In this document: one piece after another, positions 1,054-12,177 of the stretch | Layout of the letters: every line of letters starts with the position of its first letter | Numbering within the stretch: the stretch's first letter is position 1 | IMG/VR virus record: IMGVR_UViG_2703718818_000015 | Coordinates: 1 to 13,111 of that record | Length of the DNA: 13,111 nt | Reading direction: 5' to 3' (one strand) | Source: a virus | Lineage: Duplodnaviria; Heunggongvirae; Uroviricota; Caudoviricetes | Notes under the pieces: generated by a model | What the model was told of the DNA's origin: nothing | What the model saw: only the letters and a program-made list of their open reading frames with translations | Database searches by the model: none | Translations under genes and position numbers: made by a program

Positions 1054-1058
1054 AAAAA

Positions 1059-1079
1059 ATGCCCTCCAGTGGAGAGCAT
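1059..1079 (-). promoter_or_regulatory. 21-bp imperfect palindrome/hairpin flanked by A6 and T5, overlapping the int Shine-Dalgarno; candidate terminator/attenuator or operator
   Basis: ATGCCCTCCAGTGGAGAGCAT pairs at 9 of 10 arm positions. Read on the minus strand the stem is followed by TTTTTT and then the int ATG. The GGAGGG SD lies inside the 3' arm. Confidence 0.4.
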
Positions 1080-1106
1080 TTTTACTGTATGTATAACCAG
1101 TGTCAA
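1078..1106 (-). promoter_or_regulatory. Putative sigma70 promoter for int (-35 TTGACA, 16-17 bp spacer, A/T-rich -10)
   Basis: The minus-strand reading of 1101-1106 is a perfect TTGACA. A TAAAAA/AAAAAT -10-like hexamer lies 16-17 bp downstream (plus-strand 1078-1084). Hexamer match only, no experimental support. Confidence 0.3.
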
Positions 1107-1131
1107 TGTATGATGCTTAAGGTTACATACA

Positions 1132-1503
1132 TCATAAGTACCGATATGATTGCGGGGCCGTTATGTTATCACCTAATGAACTTAGATGAAGTGGTTGGTC
1201 ATAGATTTTTAGATTACCAATTTCTATAGCAAAGGCCTTTTCTTTGCTATGAAAATATGAGTCAAAAAATTGTTTACTGATACCCGCGTATTGGCTTGTT
1301 TTTTCCCATACAATACTTGGCTTGTCTTCTATAACATCTGCAATGTCAAATTCAGCAACAACTTTACCGACAGGCATTGTTGAATAAATAACCACAGATT
1401 TTACATCCGGTTTTTTGAAAATTCCTTTTCGGAATTCAAATTTCTTTGTTCCATTAAGGATTTTTTCTACATGCTCTGGGTTAATTGACAATAATACTTT
1501 CAT
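1132..1503 (-). CDS. ASCH-domain (PUA-like fold) protein, ~123 aa; cargo gene 3
   Basis: ORF 1132-1515; likely ATG start at 1501-1503 (a TTG at 1513-1515 is the alternative). GxKxxExR signature of ASCH domains present (G-T-K-K-F-E-F-R, nt 1429-1452). Size and N-terminal KVLLSI...EKIL pattern are typical of stand-alone ASCH proteins. Start overlaps the 3' end of the upstream gene by 23 nt. Confidence 0.7.
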   Translation of the reverse strand: MKVLLSINPEHVEKILNGTKKFEFRKGIFKKPDVKSVVIYSTMPVGKVVAEFDIADVIEDKPSIVWEKTSQYAGISKQFFDSYFHSKEKAFAIEIGNLKIYDQPLHLSSLGDNITAPQSYRYL

Positions 1504-2551
1504 TGACGCCACCAAGTTTAATAATGCTATTAAACTGTTCGTTTGTTAACTTCATGATCCCCCAGTAAGCTCGCGGGGATAATCCTACTTCAGAAATAAG
1601 TTTAGCACGATTTAGTCTTTTGGGCAAAGCAAGGTTATATGTAAAGCTTATAATATATGGGTATTTTTTTGTTCTATAAAAACTTTTAAGCTCAGATTCT
1701 GTAAAAACAGAATATCTAGAACAGTAATTTAGAAATTCTTTCTCTGTAACGAAAGAGTTTATATTTCTAACTTTTTCTACTACACATAAAGAAGTAGCAA
1801 CAGAACGGTAATATGCAGGCCCTTGATTATCGGATGTTCGGTATATAACGATTATATCGTTTGGCTTCATTAATTCAACATCTGACATGCCACAAATATA
1901 TACTTTTCTAATGCTATTTGCATATGATACATCAGCAACAACGTCTGGTGACTCTGTAATTAATTTTGAGTCAGGGAATAAACGAGTATGAAATACGGGG
2001 TATATTGAAAGCAAGAATTTATTTTCACTGCCTCTGTTATTAATAAATGGATAATCTGACAGTATATCGCCCGTAAGAGCATTACTATTCATTTCTTTTA
2101 TTAGTACTCGCTCTACACCATTTTCAGATTCTTTTACTCCAATATCTATAAAGCCATAGATTTTGAATAGTCTAATTAAGTAGTCATGTTTTTCAAAAAC
2201 AGTCACATATATATTGTTAGCATTATTATCTAGAGCGTGATCGAATATTTTTTTTAAAAATCGTTGACCACGAAGAGTTCCTTTTGGATTAAATTTAAAT
2301 GTTCCAACTTTTAGATGAATACCATCAGGAATATTTGGTTTTGTATCTTCAATGATACCTACTTCTGTTTTTAGATACAAAAAACCATCAATTTTATTTT
2401 GTTCATCATAAAGGACATATGCATAATCATTTGATTTACATTTAGAATGGAACCAATCAATAAACCCATGAGCATAATCGGATTTTAAAGAGTCAAAAAA
2501 AACATCAGAAAAATCTACTTGATTAAAAGGTATGTATTTTAAGTTTTCCAT
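1481..2551 (-). CDS. Two-domain protein, 356 aa: N-terminal GNAT-like (acyl-CoA N-acyltransferase fold) region, C-terminal PUA/ASCH-like region; cargo gene 2
   Basis: ATG at 2549-2551 with AGGA ~10 nt upstream, 2 nt after the stop of the upstream gene. N-terminal ~145 aa shows GNAT-like pattern (...YVLYDEQNKIDGFLYLK... / ...NNIYVTVFEKHDYLIRLFKIYGF...). C-terminal ~170 aa has beta-rich PUA-like character (...KVYICGMSDVELMKPNDIIVIY...). Domain calls are by eye only. Confidence 0.65.
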   Translation of the reverse strand: MENLKYIPFNQVDFSDVFFDSLKSDYAHGFIDWFHSKCKSNDYAYVLYDEQNKIDGFLYLKTEVGIIEDTKPNIPDGIHLKVGTFKFNPKGTLRGQRFLKKIFDHALDNNANNIYVTVFEKHDYLIRLFKIYGFIDIGVKESENGVERVLIKEMNSNALTGDILSDYPFINNRGSENKFLLSIYPVFHTRLFPDSKLITESPDVVADVSYANSIRKVYICGMSDVELMKPNDIIVIYRTSDNQGPAYYRSVATSLCVVEKVRNINSFVTEKEFLNYCSRYSVFTESELKSFYRTKKYPYIISFTYNLALPKRLNRAKLISEVGLSPRAYWGIMKLTNEQFNSIIKLGGVNESIIVN

Positions 2552-2553
2552 GT

Positions 2554-3336
2554 TTACAATCCTATTTTAAAATCACATGATAAGCAAATTGATTTAGTTT
2601 TAGATATGACGGCGAGTGTTTTCCCCGGAGTTTGACAATTAGTACAAACATTCCAATTTTTCGGTTTTCCATCAATCTTATATATGTTGGCTAAAATATC
2701 ATCTAAAGGAAAAAATGTTTTCATCATGTCTATAATGCTTGCTGCATAGTTTTTCTTTGCCTCGGCTAATTTTTGTTCAGGCATGTTTTTATCATTTATC
2801 AAGCAATGAACCAGGTTATTAAGAGGCTCTTGATATATCTCCTCTCGAAAAATTAGAAATGCACTTAAAAAGTCTTTACGTATTTCTTTATTATTACTTT
2901 TACCTAAGTGAATTACTTTATTTCTTTCTTTGCGCAAAATATCATAAATTTCATTAAAGCGCGGTGAAAGATTTCGCCCACTGATACTTTGTGCTATTCT
3001 ATGTAGTTCGGTTGCGTCTAATGTTGAACATTCGAAAAAAGATTTGTTTTTATAGCAGTCTTTTACTTCTTTTAAAAGTAAATAAACACTATGCTCAGCA
3101 ATTATAGACTTTAGATATATTTCAGCAGAATTAAAGAGTATTACCAAGCCAGATTGAAAGAAACTCTCTTTTTCGGATATTAAGCGTTTCAGTCGTTGTT
3201 CTTCTGTTTCAGGTTGAGCTGGGGCTTGCAATAACTCAATGTCAGAATAAAAGTGTAAGTAGAATGTTTTAATGAAAAACTCAAGGTTCCTTTTGGCATA
3301 AAGAAGCATCTCTTCATTGTTAGGAAGGTCTGTCAT
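2554..3336 (-). CDS. HEPN-like protein with C-terminal C4 zinc ribbon, 260 aa; cargo gene 1 (putative RNase-type effector)
   Basis: ATG at 3334-3336 directly abuts the cI stop (3337-3339), with AAGGA 7 nt upstream. R-N-K-V-I-H (residues 138-143, nt 2908-2925) matches the HEPN Rx4-6H motif in a helical context. C-terminus has CxxC-x16-CxxC (C231, C234, C251, C254). Very AT-rich coding sequence. Confidence 0.65.
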   Translation of the reverse strand: MTDLPNNEEMLLYAKRNLEFFIKTFYLHFYSDIELLQAPAQPETEEQRLKRLISEKESFFQSGLVILFNSAEIYLKSIIAEHSVYLLLKEVKDCYKNKSFFECSTLDATELHRIAQSISGRNLSPRFNEIYDILRKERNKVIHLGKSNNKEIRKDFLSAFLIFREEIYQEPLNNLVHCLINDKNMPEQKLAEAKKNYAASIIDMMKTFFPLDDILANIYKIDGKPKNWNVCTNCQTPGKTLAVISKTKSICLSCDFKIGL

Positions 3337-4603: not shown

Positions 4604-4635
4604 TTCCATTTTGAGATACATCAGGGATGTCGACT

Positions 4636-5145
4636 ATGTTTGATTACCAAGTTTCCAAACATCCACATTTTGATGAAGCCTGTCGTGCATTCGCATTGCG
4701 CCACAACCTGGTGCAACTGGCAGAACGTGCAGGCATGAATGTGCAGATTCTGCGGAACAAGCTGAACCCAGCTCAACCTCATTTATTAACCGCACCAGAA
4801 ATCTGGCTGCTTACCGATCTGACTGAAGATTCAACGCTGATAGATGGTTTTCTGGCACAGATTCACTGCCTGCCATGTGTACCGATTAATGAGGTAGCAA
4901 AAGAGAAACTGCCGCATTACGTCATGAGTGCAACCGCAGAGATCGGGCGTGTTGCTGCAGGTGCGGTATCTGGCGATGTAAAAACCAGTGCAGGTCGTCG
5001 TGATGCTATCAGCAGCATTAACTCTGTAACACGACTGATGGCGCTGGCTGCTGTTTCATTGCAGGCCCGTTTACAGGCTAACCCTGCGATGGCGAGTGCA
5101 GTTGATACCGTGACTGGCCTCGGCGCCTCATTCGGTTTGCTGTGA
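4636..5145 (+). CDS. cII: Phage 186 CII-type lysogeny establishment regulator, 169 aa
   Basis: Strong resemblance to remembered 186 CII ([21 protein letters not shown]...[17 protein letters not shown]...[27 protein letters not shown]...). ATG at 4636 with AGGGA 8 nt upstream; an in-frame ATG at 4627 is the alternative. Confidence 0.85.
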
Positions 5146-8379: not shown

Positions 8380-8850
8380 ATGATGATGGTGCTGGGATTG
8401 TACGTGGTGCCGTATCAGGAGCTGCAGTATCAACGCAGCTGGCGACATGCGGCAAACAGCCGGGTAAACCGACGTCCGTCCACGCAGTTTCTGGGACCGG
8501 ACAACGACATGCTGACGCTTTCCGGTGTTCTTATGCCGGAGATAACAGGTGGCAGGCTGTCGTTGCTGGCACTGGAGCAGATGGCAGAACAGGGGAAAGC
8601 ATGGCCCCTGATTGAAGGCAGCGGCACGATTTATGGCATGTATGTGATTGAGGGACTGAATCAGACTAAAACGGAGTTTTTCCGCGACGGTATGCCGCGC
8701 CGGATTGAGTTCACCCTGTCGCTCAAACGGGTGGATGAATCCCTGTCCGATATGTTCGGTGATCTCAGTGCGCAGCTGAATAATCTGCAGGGAACGGCAA
8801 CATCTGCCTTAAGCGATATCAGTAAAACGGTGGGAGGGCTTCTGTCGTGA
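8380..8850 (+). CDS. U: P2-type tail protein U, 156 aa
   Basis: Resembles remembered P2 gpU (MML.LG...; ...LSGVL.PE.TGG.L...L....AE.G.AWPL..G.G.IYGMYVI...F...G.PR.I.FTLSL.RVDESL). Stop overlaps the start of D (GTGA). Confidence 0.85.
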   Translation: MMMVLGLYVVPYQELQYQRSWRHAANSRVNRRPSTQFLGPDNDMLTLSGVLMPEITGGRLSLLALEQMAEQGKAWPLIEGSGTIYGMYVIEGLNQTKTEFFRDGMPRRIEFTLSLKRVDESLSDMFGDLSAQLNNLQGTATSALSDISKTVGGLLS

Positions 8851-9947
8851 ATTTCAGCTCTGAACTGCTTAACAAAGGCAACAAAACTCCGGCATTCAGC
8901 ATCAGTATTGAAGGCAGGGATATCACCACTGTGCTGGACAACCGCCTGATGGGGCTTACGCTGACGGATAACCGGGGCTTTGAAGCGGACCAGCTTGATC
9001 TGGAGCTGGACGACGCTGACGGAAAAATCGTGCTGCCGCGCCGTGGTGCGGTCATTACGCTGGCGCTGGGCTGGAAGGGGCAGCCGCTTTTCCCGAAAGG
9101 GGCATTCACGGTGGACGAGATTGAACACACTGGCGCACCGGACCGCCTGACTATCCGGGCGCGAAGTGCTGATTTTCGGGAAACGCTGAATACCCGCCGT
9201 GAAAAGTCGTGGCACAAGACCACGGTCGGGGAAGTGGTGAAGGAAATAGCCGCGCGGCACAAACTGAAGATGGCACTGGGTAAAGACTTGTCGGATAAAC
9301 CCGTGGAGCATATAGACCAGACCAATGAGAGTGACGCCAGTTTTTTGATGCGGCTGGCGCGCCAGTACGGTGCTATTGCGTCGGTGAAAAATGGCAATCT
9401 GTTATTCATCCGACAGGGACAGGGTAAAAGTGCCAGCGGTAAACCACTGCCGGTGATCACTATCACACGTAAGGACGGCGACAGTCACCGCTTTACCTTG
9501 GCAGATCGCGGAGCCTATACGGGCGTAATTGCCAGTTGGTTGCATACCCGCGAACCCGCGAAGAAAGAAAGCACAACGGTGAAGCGTAAGCGCAGGACTA
9601 AGAATCAGAAGAAAGAGCCGGAAGCGAAGCAGGGCGATTACCTGGTGGGTACGGATGAAAACGTGCTGGTACTTAATCGCACTTATGCCAACCGGAGCAA
9701 CGCTGAACGGGCAGCGAAAATGCAGTGGGAACGCCTGCAACGCGGCGTTGCGTCATTCTCGCTACAACTGGCGGAAGGGCGGGCAGATCTCTACACGGAA
9801 ATGCCTGTGAAGGTCAGTGGCTTTAAACAGCCGATAGATGATGCGGAATGGACCATTACGACTCTGACGCATACCGTCAGCCCGGATAATGGTTTTACGA
9901 CCAGTCTGGAGCTTGAAGTGAGGATTGATGATTTCGAAATGGAATGA
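8847..9947 (+). CDS. D: P2-type tail protein D, 366 aa
   Basis: Resembles remembered P2 gpD (TPAF.....G.DIT..L..RLM.LT.TDNRGFEADQLD.EL.DADG...LP.RGAV...). GTG start at 8847 with GGGAGGG ~10 nt upstream. Immediately precedes ogr as in P2. Confidence 0.85.
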   Translation: MNFSSELLNKGNKTPAFSISIEGRDITTVLDNRLMGLTLTDNRGFEADQLDLELDDADGKIVLPRRGAVITLALGWKGQPLFPKGAFTVDEIEHTGAPDRLTIRARSADFRETLNTRREKSWHKTTVGEVVKEIAARHKLKMALGKDLSDKPVEHIDQTNESDASFLMRLARQYGAIASVKNGNLLFIRQGQGKSASGKPLPVITITRKDGDSHRFTLADRGAYTGVIASWLHTREPAKKESTTVKRKRRTKNQKKEPEAKQGDYLVGTDENVLVLNRTYANRSNAERAAKMQWERLQRGVASFSLQLAEGRADLYTEMPVKVSGFKQPIDDAEWTITTLTHTVSPDNGFTTSLELEVRIDDFEME

Positions 9948-10037
9948 TTCTTCGCAATGGAGAACTTTTAAGTTTGCAAAATGGAATAATGCGGTATCAT
10001 TATTGTGAATTTAGCAAAAATGGGGAGAACTCGAAAA

Positions 10038-10256
10038 ATGATGATTTGCCCACTGTGTGGAAGTGCCGCCCATACTCGCAGCAGTTTTCAGGTATCTTCA
10101 TTGACCAAAGAGCGTTACAACCAGTGCCAGAATATTAACTGCAGCCATACTTTTGTAACCCATGAAACTTTTGTTCGTTCGATTGCAACGCCAAAAGAGT
10201 CAAATCCGGTTCAGCCGCATCCAATGAAATCAGGACAGGTGGCGCTCTCTCTTTGA
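10038..10256 (+). CDS. ogr: Ogr/Delta-family zinc-finger late-gene activator, 72 aa
   Basis: CPLC...C.N.NC zinc-finger arrangement and length matching P2 Ogr (72 aa). ATG at 10038 with GGGGAG 10 nt upstream. The longer ORF-track start (10005) is a GTG and is rejected. Confidence 0.85.
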   Translation: MMICPLCGSAAHTRSSFQVSSLTKERYNQCQNINCSHTFVTHETFVRSIATPKESNPVQPHPMKSGQVALSL

Positions 10257-10336
10257 CGCTGCCGCCATTTTGTCGCCATCGTTAAAAAACAGTGCTTCTA
10301 ACGTCATGATTTTAAAAGGCATAAACTTCAGGCAAC

Positions 10337-10379
10337 AAAAAACCCATCAACCTTGAACCGAAATGGCGGGGTTGATGGG
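10337..10379 (-). terminator. Rho-independent terminator, minus-strand sense; probable ybjL terminator
   Basis: 10-bp perfect inverted repeat CCCATCAACC (10343-10352) / GGTTGATGGG (10370-10379). On the minus strand the stem is followed by TTTTTT (complement of 10337-10342). Lies 113 nt downstream of the ybjL stop. Confidence 0.5.
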
Positions 10380-10491
10380 CTCCACAAAATGGGGACATCA
10401 AAGAAAAGCAGTGGCACTAATTAAGACTGATGCCCTGCGGAAAAGTTCTGCGGTTGTGCAAAAAAATTTCATTTTCAGGGCAACTTCAGTT

Positions 10492-12177
10492 TTATCCTAA
10501 TCCTGGCCATACCATGACGATGATTGTCCCTGCCAGCGTCAGCAGGACGTTGGCGATTGCATAGGTGCCCGCATAGCCCAGCGCCGGGATGTTACTGCGA
10601 GCTGTATCACTGATGATCTCCATTGCCGGCGCGCAGGTACGTGCGCCCATCATTGCGCCGAACAACAGCGCGCGGTTCATTCGCAATACATAAGCACCGA
10701 ACAAGAAACAGATAACCACGGGCACCAGACTGACAATCAATCCGGCAATCAACATCTGACCGCCAATCGCGCCCAGGCCGTTATTAATACCGCTACCGGC
10801 GCTCAGACCAACGCCTGCCATAAACACCATCAAGCCGAACTCTTTCACCATGCTTAATGCACCCTGCGGAATGTAACCGAAGGTCGGGTGGTTAGCACGC
10901 ATAAAGCCCAGCATAATTCCGGCGAATAACAACCCGGCAGCGTTCCCCATGCCGAAACTGAATGTGCTGAACTGGAAGGTGATCATCCCGATCATCAGCC
11001 CAATAACAAAGAAGGCGCAGAATGCCAGCAGGTCAGTGACCTGGCTGTGAATCGAGATAAAGCCGATGCGATCGGCGATGGTTTTTACGCGGCGGGCATC
11101 GCCGCTGACTTGTAAAACGTCACCTTTGTTAAGCACGACGTTGTCATCTATCGGCATCTCAATCTGGCTACGAATGACGCGGTTAAGGAAGCAACCGTGA
11201 TCGGTCAACTTCAGTTGTGCGAGACGTTTACCTACAGCGTTATGGTTTTTAACGACCACTTCTTCAGTGACGATACGCATGTCGAGAAGGTCACGATCGA
11301 AAACTTCTTTACCGTTACGGAAGCTGGGATCGAGTCGGGCATGGGCGTCGGGATAGCCTACCAACGCTATTTCATCGCCCATTTGTAGCACGGCATCACC
11401 GTCTGGATTTGCCAGAATCCCGTTACGTCGAATACGTTCAATGTAGCAGCCGGTTTGTCGATAAATACCCAGTTCACGCAGATTTTTGCCGTCGGTCCAG
11501 GCCACCAGTTCCGGGCCGACGCGATAGGCGCGGATCACCGGTAAATAAACCTTACGGTTGGCATCAGTGTCCAGGCCACGTTCGCGGGCGATTTGCTGGG
11601 CGCTGGTCTGTAAGTCCTGATGCTGCAATTTCGGCAAGTAACGCGCACCAACAATCAAACTCACCAGACCGATTAAATAGGTTAAGGCATACCCGAGGCT
11701 CAGATTATCCAGTGCCAGTGAGAGCTGCCTGCTTTCCATGCCGGAATGACGCAGTGTATCGCCAGCACCGACCAGAACCGGTGTCGACGTCATAGAGCCT
11801 GCTAACATACCGGCCGTCAGGCCAATATCCCAGCCAAACAGCTTACCTAACCCTAAGGCGATCACCAGCGCACTGCCAACCATCACCAGTGCTAACATTA
11901 GGTAATTTTTCCCATCGCGAAAAAAAATGGAAAAAAAGTTCGGTCCGGCTTCGACCCCGACGCAGAAAATAAACAGCATAAAGCCAAGATTAAGCGCATC
12001 GGTGTTAATGCTGAAATGTTGTTGGCCTAATAACAGCGATACGACTAAAACGCCAATGGAATTACCCAGTTGGATCGAACCAAGTCGTAACTTTCCGAGA
12101 CATAGCCCAAGCGCGAGGACCACAAATAATAACAGAATGTAATTCCCATTTAACAATTCGGCGACGTTTATATTCAC
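10492..12177 (-). CDS. ybjL: Putative AAE-family transporter YbjL (membrane protein with two TrkA-C/RCK_C-like domains), 561 aa
   Basis: Recognised as E. coli YbjL ([18 protein letters not shown]...). GTG start at 12175-12177. Hydrophobic N- and C-terminal halves flank a soluble central region. Confidence 0.95.

Follow-up and report, generated by a model that had tools for sequence, protein, structure and literature searches.

A putative LexA- and CII-linked integrase promoter overlapped by a candidate insulator hairpin in a 186-like prophage

Phage 186 is a textbook lysis–lysogeny switch in which the integrase gene (int) rides on the repressor transcript. In 186 the stop codon of cI overlaps the int start by one base, and the promoter pE, with a poor −35 and negligible basal activity, drives cI and int together. 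The CII half-sites that serve pE are centred at −38 and −58 (PMC6593788). A second 186 promoter, p95, controls the antirepressor gene tum and is repressed by LexA, and 186 itself has no LexA box at int. In lambda, CII activates a dedicated int promoter, pI (PMC7708051), and the integron integrase promoter Pint carries a LexA box and is under direct SOS control (PMC3108266). LexA control of integron integrases and CII control of lambda int are already known, as are 186 pE and p95. Our literature search on LexA or CII sites at the int gene of P2- or 186-like phages found none, and a report elsewhere is possible.

The DNA examined here is a stretch of 13,111 nucleotides (the window) that comprises the left part of a 186-like (Peduoviridae) prophage. 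The record most similar to it is E. coli ExPEC XM, in which the element adjoins rcdA, and the backbone is common to intact Klebsiella and Escherichia phages at ~95% identity. The minus strand carries a long cI (4293–3337), three cargo genes (3336–1132) and int, whose product is labelled ‘phage integrase’ in near-identical E. coli loci; the plus strand carries apl, cII and then early genes. The cargo matches the PADLOC candidate defence system PDC-M11A/B, with component A at 1481–2551 (E = 2e-130) and the ASCH protein at 1132–1515 as component B (E = 5e-48), while the third cargo protein (2554–3336) has weak similarity to DUF3644. Two further properties of the element were recorded. Its cI product is 318 aa long, compared with about 190 usually, and contains two tandem Phage_CI_repr HTH domains along with a CI C-terminal domain; a long CI also occurs in two other loci (L024 and L030) and in phage RCIP0057. 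The element also resembles a remnant that lacks late genes (8847–12177): replication gene A ends at 9947, an Ogr/Delta zinc-finger gene follows directly (10005–10256), and past it lies a host-type Asp-Al_Ex/TrkA_C permease on the minus strand (10492–12177).

We focus on the 78-bp gap between the last cargo gene (TGA at 1134–1132) and int (ATG at 1053–1051). An earlier note, made from the sequence without database searches, had described this gap as holding a perfect TTGACA, an A/T-rich −10 candidate, and a palindrome followed on the minus strand by T6 and the int ATG, with the int Shine–Dalgarno sequence (SD) inside the 3′ arm. All of these are present (Table 1). The palindrome is real, but the 1059–1079 interval given for it is the core only, and the full arms, 93% complementary in an inverted-repeat search, extend over 1055–1068 and 1070–1083. 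Judging from motif matches, that reading overlooked two probable operators adjoining the palindrome, a LexA box and a dyad of the 186 CII type. For comparison we used 77 int loci, one genome per species, together with 80 from IMG/VR; 71 of the species (GTDB) loci were usable for counting the module formed by these elements, and the hairpin, T-run, LexA and dyad counts given below are not phylogenetically independent.

Table 1. Features of the int-proximal gap and related features of the element; positions are those of the window.
Feature	Position	Strand	Basis or remark
int, tyrosine integrase, 350 aa	1..1053	-	ATG 1053-1051; ORF list and translation
T6 run (U-tract of terminator-like element)	1054..1059	-	sequence, between hairpin and ATG
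Palindrome/RNA hairpin, 13-bp arms, 3-nt loop	1055..1083	-	repeat search and folds
Shine–Dalgarno GGAGGG of int	1062..1067	-	8 nt ahead of ATG; within hairpin 3′ arm
Predicted int transcription start	1071 (+/-2 nt)	-	last base of hairpin 5′ arm; inferred 7 nt past −10
−10 candidate AAAAAT	1078..1083	-	promoter scan, 10/12 matches, 17-nt spacer
LexA (SOS) box TACTGTATGTATAACCAGTG (plus strand)	1083..1102	.	fills −35/−10 spacer
−35 hexamer TTGACA	1101..1106	-	sequence and promoter scan
186-CII-type dyad ATGTATG-N13-CATACAT	1106..1132	.	half-sites 1132-1126 and 1112-1106
Last cargo gene (ASCH domain; PADLOC PDC-M11B)	1132..1515	-	Pfam and PADLOC matches
cII (186 CII family), proposed activator	4627..5145	+	Pfam Phage_CP76, E = 3.8e-42
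Element’s own pE-type CII site, ATGTTTG-N13-CAAACAT	4636..4662	.	inside cII start; reference copy

A lone TTGACA is expected several times by chance in 13 kb, and the hexamer owes its significance to its conservation across loci. Relatives carry TTGACA, TTGACC, TTGAAT or TTTACA at the −35 position and TAAATT, TAAAAT or TATTTT at the −10. The two hexamers are conserved at fixed spacing in 96 unique promoter regions, which supports the int-proximal promoter offered earlier as one of several possibilities. An alternative −10, TACAGT, was rejected as it lies inside the LexA box just 11 nt from the conserved −35. By the usual spacing rule, transcription from this promoter would start at ~1071.

The spacer between the hexamers, CACTGGTTATACATACAGTA, is filled by a 20-bp site that matches the LexA consensus TACTGTATATATATACAGTA (CTG-N10-CAG core) and overlaps TTGACA and AAAAAT by 1–2 bases each. 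We scored it with a position weight matrix (PWM) built from 18 E. coli boxes. On this matrix the site reaches 23.4 bits, compared with a median of 20.9 for the 18 known boxes, and the next best site in the 13-kb window reaches 11.3 bits, leaving the box as the sole strong site. The annotated LexA site at 186 p95 scores 27.5 bits on the same matrix and is identical to the box at 16 of 20 bases; as a known site at the equivalent (tum-type) promoter, it provides a partial positive control.

Among the species loci, 41/71 carry a LexA box of 14.5–26.5 bits at 47–54 nt before the int ATG, and the remaining 30 have no LexA site above 8 bits upstream of int. The genera with a box at int include Escherichia, Klebsiella, Raoultella, Citrobacter, Enterobacter, Serratia, Yersinia, Rahnella, Pantoea, Pectobacterium, Brenneria and others. 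The −10 follows directly past the box in all 96 unique regions. Sites of this strength are rare elsewhere: 926 kb of related loci hold only 61 of at least 14.5 bits, 41 of which lie ~50 nt ahead of an int ATG. The remainder include boxes that occur in pairs at a distance upstream, close to the edge of the locus; in L003 and L286 such a pair directly precedes DinI-like (Tum-type) or unannotated ORFs.

These pairs consist of two overlapping boxes 15 bp apart (L003, 8035–8069; L286, 9345–9379; L054 and L055, 42–76). In L003 a hypothetical ORF comes next, followed by the DinI-like gene. In contrast to the pairs of some relatives, only one box is annotated at 186 p95. The tum-type LexA box is absent from the window element; intact relatives carry both a tum-type and an int LexA site.

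Directly upstream of the promoter lies the CII-type dyad, a pattern that is unique in the window, where chance predicts 0 matches. Its half-sites are separated by N13, which puts their centres 20 bp, or two helical turns, from each other, and the cargo stop codon overlaps the distal one by a single base. The annotated CII site at 186 pE is ATGTTTG-N13-CAAACAT, from which each window half-site differs by one symmetric mismatch. Counted from the predicted start at 1071, the window half-sites are centred at −38 (1109) and −58 (1129). Across the 96 unique regions the proximal half-site has 0–1 mismatch in 95 and the distal one in 86; the sequence between them is unconserved, and its length is 13 nt in 47 regions and 12 nt in another 47.

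It is conceivable, though unlikely, that the promoter is controlled by LexA only, the dyad being bound by another protein or forming an upstream element with no role for CII. Consistent with this, both half-sites depart from those of pE at a single base, and half of the relatives have N12 spacing; a 1-bp change in spacing reportedly lowers the affinity of 186 CII, a result credited to Shearwin and Egan in 2000. In addition, the consensus −35 needs no activator, and cII is unconfirmed in the loci where int follows ogr (Pantoea and Rahnella, in loci that are short or end near int), which nonetheless carry perfect dyads. Against a promoter without CII, exact pE half-sites (ATGTTTG and CAAACAT) occur in L037, L044, L066 and many IMG/VR loci, and the centre-to-centre distance of ~20 bp matches that of 186 CII at pE. 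A search of 500 kb for the pattern (up to 2 mismatches, N12–13) returned it almost only at pE and ~80 nt before int. Cargo insertions, moreover, always end just short of the distal half-site. We therefore retain the dyad as a putative site for the cognate CII encoded by the element. The consensus −35 distinguishes this promoter from pE and suggests that it need not depend on an activator, in which case CII would be a modulator and not a requirement.

Two minor observations concern these sites. A rare match to the CII-type pattern beyond pE and the int promoter lies within the int coding region, at +312, in L014 and L052 (ATGTTTG-N13-CAAACGT or TAAACGT). In the window, a perfect 8-nt inverted repeat, TGTATGTA/TACATACA (1086–1093 and 1124–1131, 30 nt apart), joins the interior of the LexA box with the distal CII-type half-site and is predicted to let read-through RNA fold into a second hairpin. 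The repeat may be a simple by-product of the likeness between the LexA and CII-type motifs.

The module travels with int and with variable cargo. By megablast, the 900–1600 interval matches 1,108 of 5,426 complete E. coli genomes, and in nearly all sampled rows the match ends at window position ~1113, indicating that the hairpin and the −35 belong with int and not with the cargo. Past this point the content varies by strain and includes a 63-aa hypothetical protein, a DUF4041 protein, an ASCH protein with an acetyltransferase or, as in the window, an ASCH protein with two unknown proteins. The interval between cI and int is a cargo hotspot: where a cI homologue was found upstream in module loci, about 0.4–3 kb of cargo separates it from int, and whatever the cargo, the variable region stops short of the dyad. 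The module is upstream of int in 41/71 GTDB species loci. It also occurs in phage 4LV2017, which is intact, and in the prophage of E. coli B/BL21 (L003), where the LexA box is identical to that of the window. What is observed directly is the sequence features of the module, how they are conserved and spaced across loci, and that they go together with cargo.

A different organization prevails in loci of the 186 type. About 15–20 of the 30 non-module loci have a CI match, which ends ~5 nt before the int ATG, and none of the 186-type loci with such a match has a LexA box, dyad, hairpin or cargo. The suggestion that int regulation in this element departs from the classical 186 arrangement is supported, in that loci with the 186-type cI–int overlap lack both module and cargo. 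As in the classical 186/P2 arrangement, where int is co-transcribed with the repressor gene, cI and int remain in this order on the same strand; unlike it, cargo separates the two, and a hairpin and a dedicated promoter appear to replace the coupling.

The palindrome is best understood as RNA. On the minus strand every hairpin position pairs, the sole mismatch becoming a G·U pair, and the predicted fold is AAAAAUGCUCUCC-ACU-GGAGGGCAUUUUU, followed by U and AUG. The 3′ arm (1067–1055) holds the SD and the 5′ arm (1083–1071) is its anti-SD. For the 34-nt leader the folding free energy is −16.2 kcal/mol (z = −6.8 relative to shuffles), and a 96-nt region around the hairpin gives z = −3.6. Structure is widespread among relatives: z falls below −2 in 59 of 77 unique leaders (median z = −4.1), compared with 1 of 28 control leaders from int loci without the module (p = 4e-12, from counts that are not phylogenetically independent). 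An Rfam search of 800–1500 on both strands, with E up to 1, found no matching family.

More than 12 unrelated stem sequences were found, with arms of 5 to 13 bp, and nearly all of them pair the SD within the 3′ arm. Examples include GCUCUCC/GGAGGGC, GCCCUCA/UGAGGGC, CCCCCUU/AAGGGGG and GUAGCCC/GGGCUAC, along with CACAUUCUC/GAGAAUGUG, CCUCCAUU/AAUGGAGG, CUCUCCUAAA/UUUAGGAGAG and ACAGUCCUC/GGGGGCUGU. Conservation of pairing with change of sequence fits a selected RNA structure and not a protein operator, and this persistence of structure across unrelated stems strengthens the proposal that the hairpin sequesters the SD. The palindrome had also been put forward as an operator overlapping an int promoter, and a near-perfect inverted repeat spanning the −10 and the predicted start could indeed accommodate a dimeric regulator such as CI, Apl or Int. 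We consider this very improbable and rejected it, since only the pairing is conserved: the arm sequences differ wholly between genera, the 3′ arm is always the SD, and the arms vary in length. The LexA box and the CII-type dyad, furthermore, already account for operator functions.

The position of the hairpin relative to the promoter is equally constrained. Its 5′ arm begins 0–2 nt past the −10 in all hairpin types, and in 62/62 hairpin-bearing leaders the end of this arm falls at −1 to +5 relative to the predicted start. Full leaders fold at a median of −11.6 kcal/mol, versus −1.1 for RNA that begins at the predicted start. Because the predicted start lies within the 5′ arm, only RNA that reads through from cI and the cargo should be able to form the hairpin. 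If transcription instead began at or upstream of 1083, the hairpin would be part of the int mRNA and act as a translational brake, either constitutive or relieved by some factor. Sequestration of the SD in nearly all variants would suit such a brake, the start site is itself a prediction, and the Rahnella, Yersinia and Serratia hairpins have no T-run, so that termination is not a universal role. We nevertheless regard a brake as improbable. A start 6–8 nt past the −10 cannot include an arm that begins 0–2 nt past it, as it does in unrelated hairpin types; a start at 1071 reproduces the −38/−58 geometry of pE; and loss of the hairpin is commoner in regions whose upstream terminator already blocks read-through.

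This last trend bears on termination, which the earlier note had listed as a further role for the element. The shape of an intrinsic terminator is present in this lineage, in that a G+C-rich stem-loop, GCUCUCC-ACU-GGAGGGC, is followed by A and U6, and the stem starts ~50 nt past the TGA that closes the last cargo gene, which has the same orientation. The T-run is not universal among relatives, however, and the hairpin types of Rahnella, Yersinia and Serratia do without it. A simple terminator scan of the window did not list the hairpin, which was probably missed because the stem, when extended through A/T pairs, absorbs most of the T-run. In counts that are not phylogenetically independent, a T-run follows the hairpin in 21/58 unique regions without an upstream terminator compared with 0/43 with one (p = 2e-6), and the hairpin is missing from 15/43 regions with an upstream terminator compared with 6/58 without (p = 0.005). 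Both trends fit a role in insulation against read-through. In regions of the Pantoea/Mixta type a classical terminator immediately precedes the distal half-site.

In one Pantoea locus (L037, 4790–7065) int comes after D and ogr, shares their strand and lies at the end of the element. There int reads toward host genes, and a classical terminator lies just before the CII-type dyad. This locus is also remnant-like, comprising an A fragment, cargo, a truncated D, ogr and int. In RCIP0057, the closest isolated phage in the follow-up of ogr–int loci, the order is the ordinary cI–cargo–int.

Terminator, SD-sequestering hairpin and promoter had been proposed as alternatives. Each finds some support, and they appear to be parts of one overlapping device. 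On balance we favour, as the probable if far from certain explanation, a gap that functions as an autonomous int promoter with LexA and CII inputs, overlapped by an insulator hairpin. We hypothesize that LexA, bound to the box that fills the spacer, keeps int off in an undamaged lysogen, and that the SOS response would release LexA and turn the int promoter on, alongside Tum in intact relatives. The phage’s 186-type CII would bind the dyad and raise the activity of the promoter once infection or induction has occurred. When undamaged cells are infected, LexA bound in the spacer would counteract this activation. An mRNA started at ~1071 would be free of the anti-SD arm and have a short open leader with an accessible SD. 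Read-through RNA from cI and the cargo, carrying both arms, would form the hairpin followed by U6 and terminate just before the AUG, and in any RNA that reads past the hairpin the SD would be buried. The start site, the binding of LexA and CII, termination and in vivo occlusion of the SD are all inferred from sequence.

More tentatively, and with rather less confidence than in the arrangement itself, we suggest that ~30 bp may combine a stop (a terminator and anti-SD hairpin) with a start (an SOS- and CII-gated promoter), and that the resulting autonomy of int may have allowed the interval upstream to become a hotspot for defence cargo.

Comparison with the known systems shows where this design would be shared. 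Like 186 pE, the locus has inverted 7-bp half-sites 13 bp apart at −38/−58, measured here from the predicted start, and the element encodes a CII of the 186 family. Unlike pE, the dyad fronts int alone, its half-sites are ATGTATG and CATACAT, the −35 is consensus and a LexA box occupies the spacer. The 186 p95–tum promoter is alike in having a LexA box of the same class that overlaps a phage promoter, whereas the gene controlled here is the integrase and not the antirepressor. Lambda pI is alike in logic, with a lysogeny activator switching on a dedicated int promoter, but lambda CII and 186 CII are unrelated and there is no sequence or protein homology. Lambda pI has no known LexA input and is accompanied by sib retroregulation instead of a 5′ insulator hairpin. 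Integron Pint likewise places a LexA box in the promoter of a tyrosine recombinase gene, although the recombinase family and element type are different, and it has neither an activator site nor an insulator hairpin.

It appears that a large sister group of 186 uses its own int promoter, wired to LexA, probably also to CII, and insulated against transcripts arriving upstream of it. The group includes intact Klebsiella phages and the rcdA prophage found in about one-fifth of complete E. coli genomes, E. coli B strains among them. If this is true, Int would be made after DNA damage and after infection and not in quiet lysogens, and defence cargo would be tolerated between cI and int with excision control undisturbed. 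The locus would also offer a compact, portable case of an overlapping terminator and promoter.

The position of the module also draws attention to one database annotation. In the record of phage 4LV2017 (L286, 102–1082) the deposited int starts at an internal codon, and a conserved ATG with SD and hairpin lies 71 nt further upstream, at locus position 1153.
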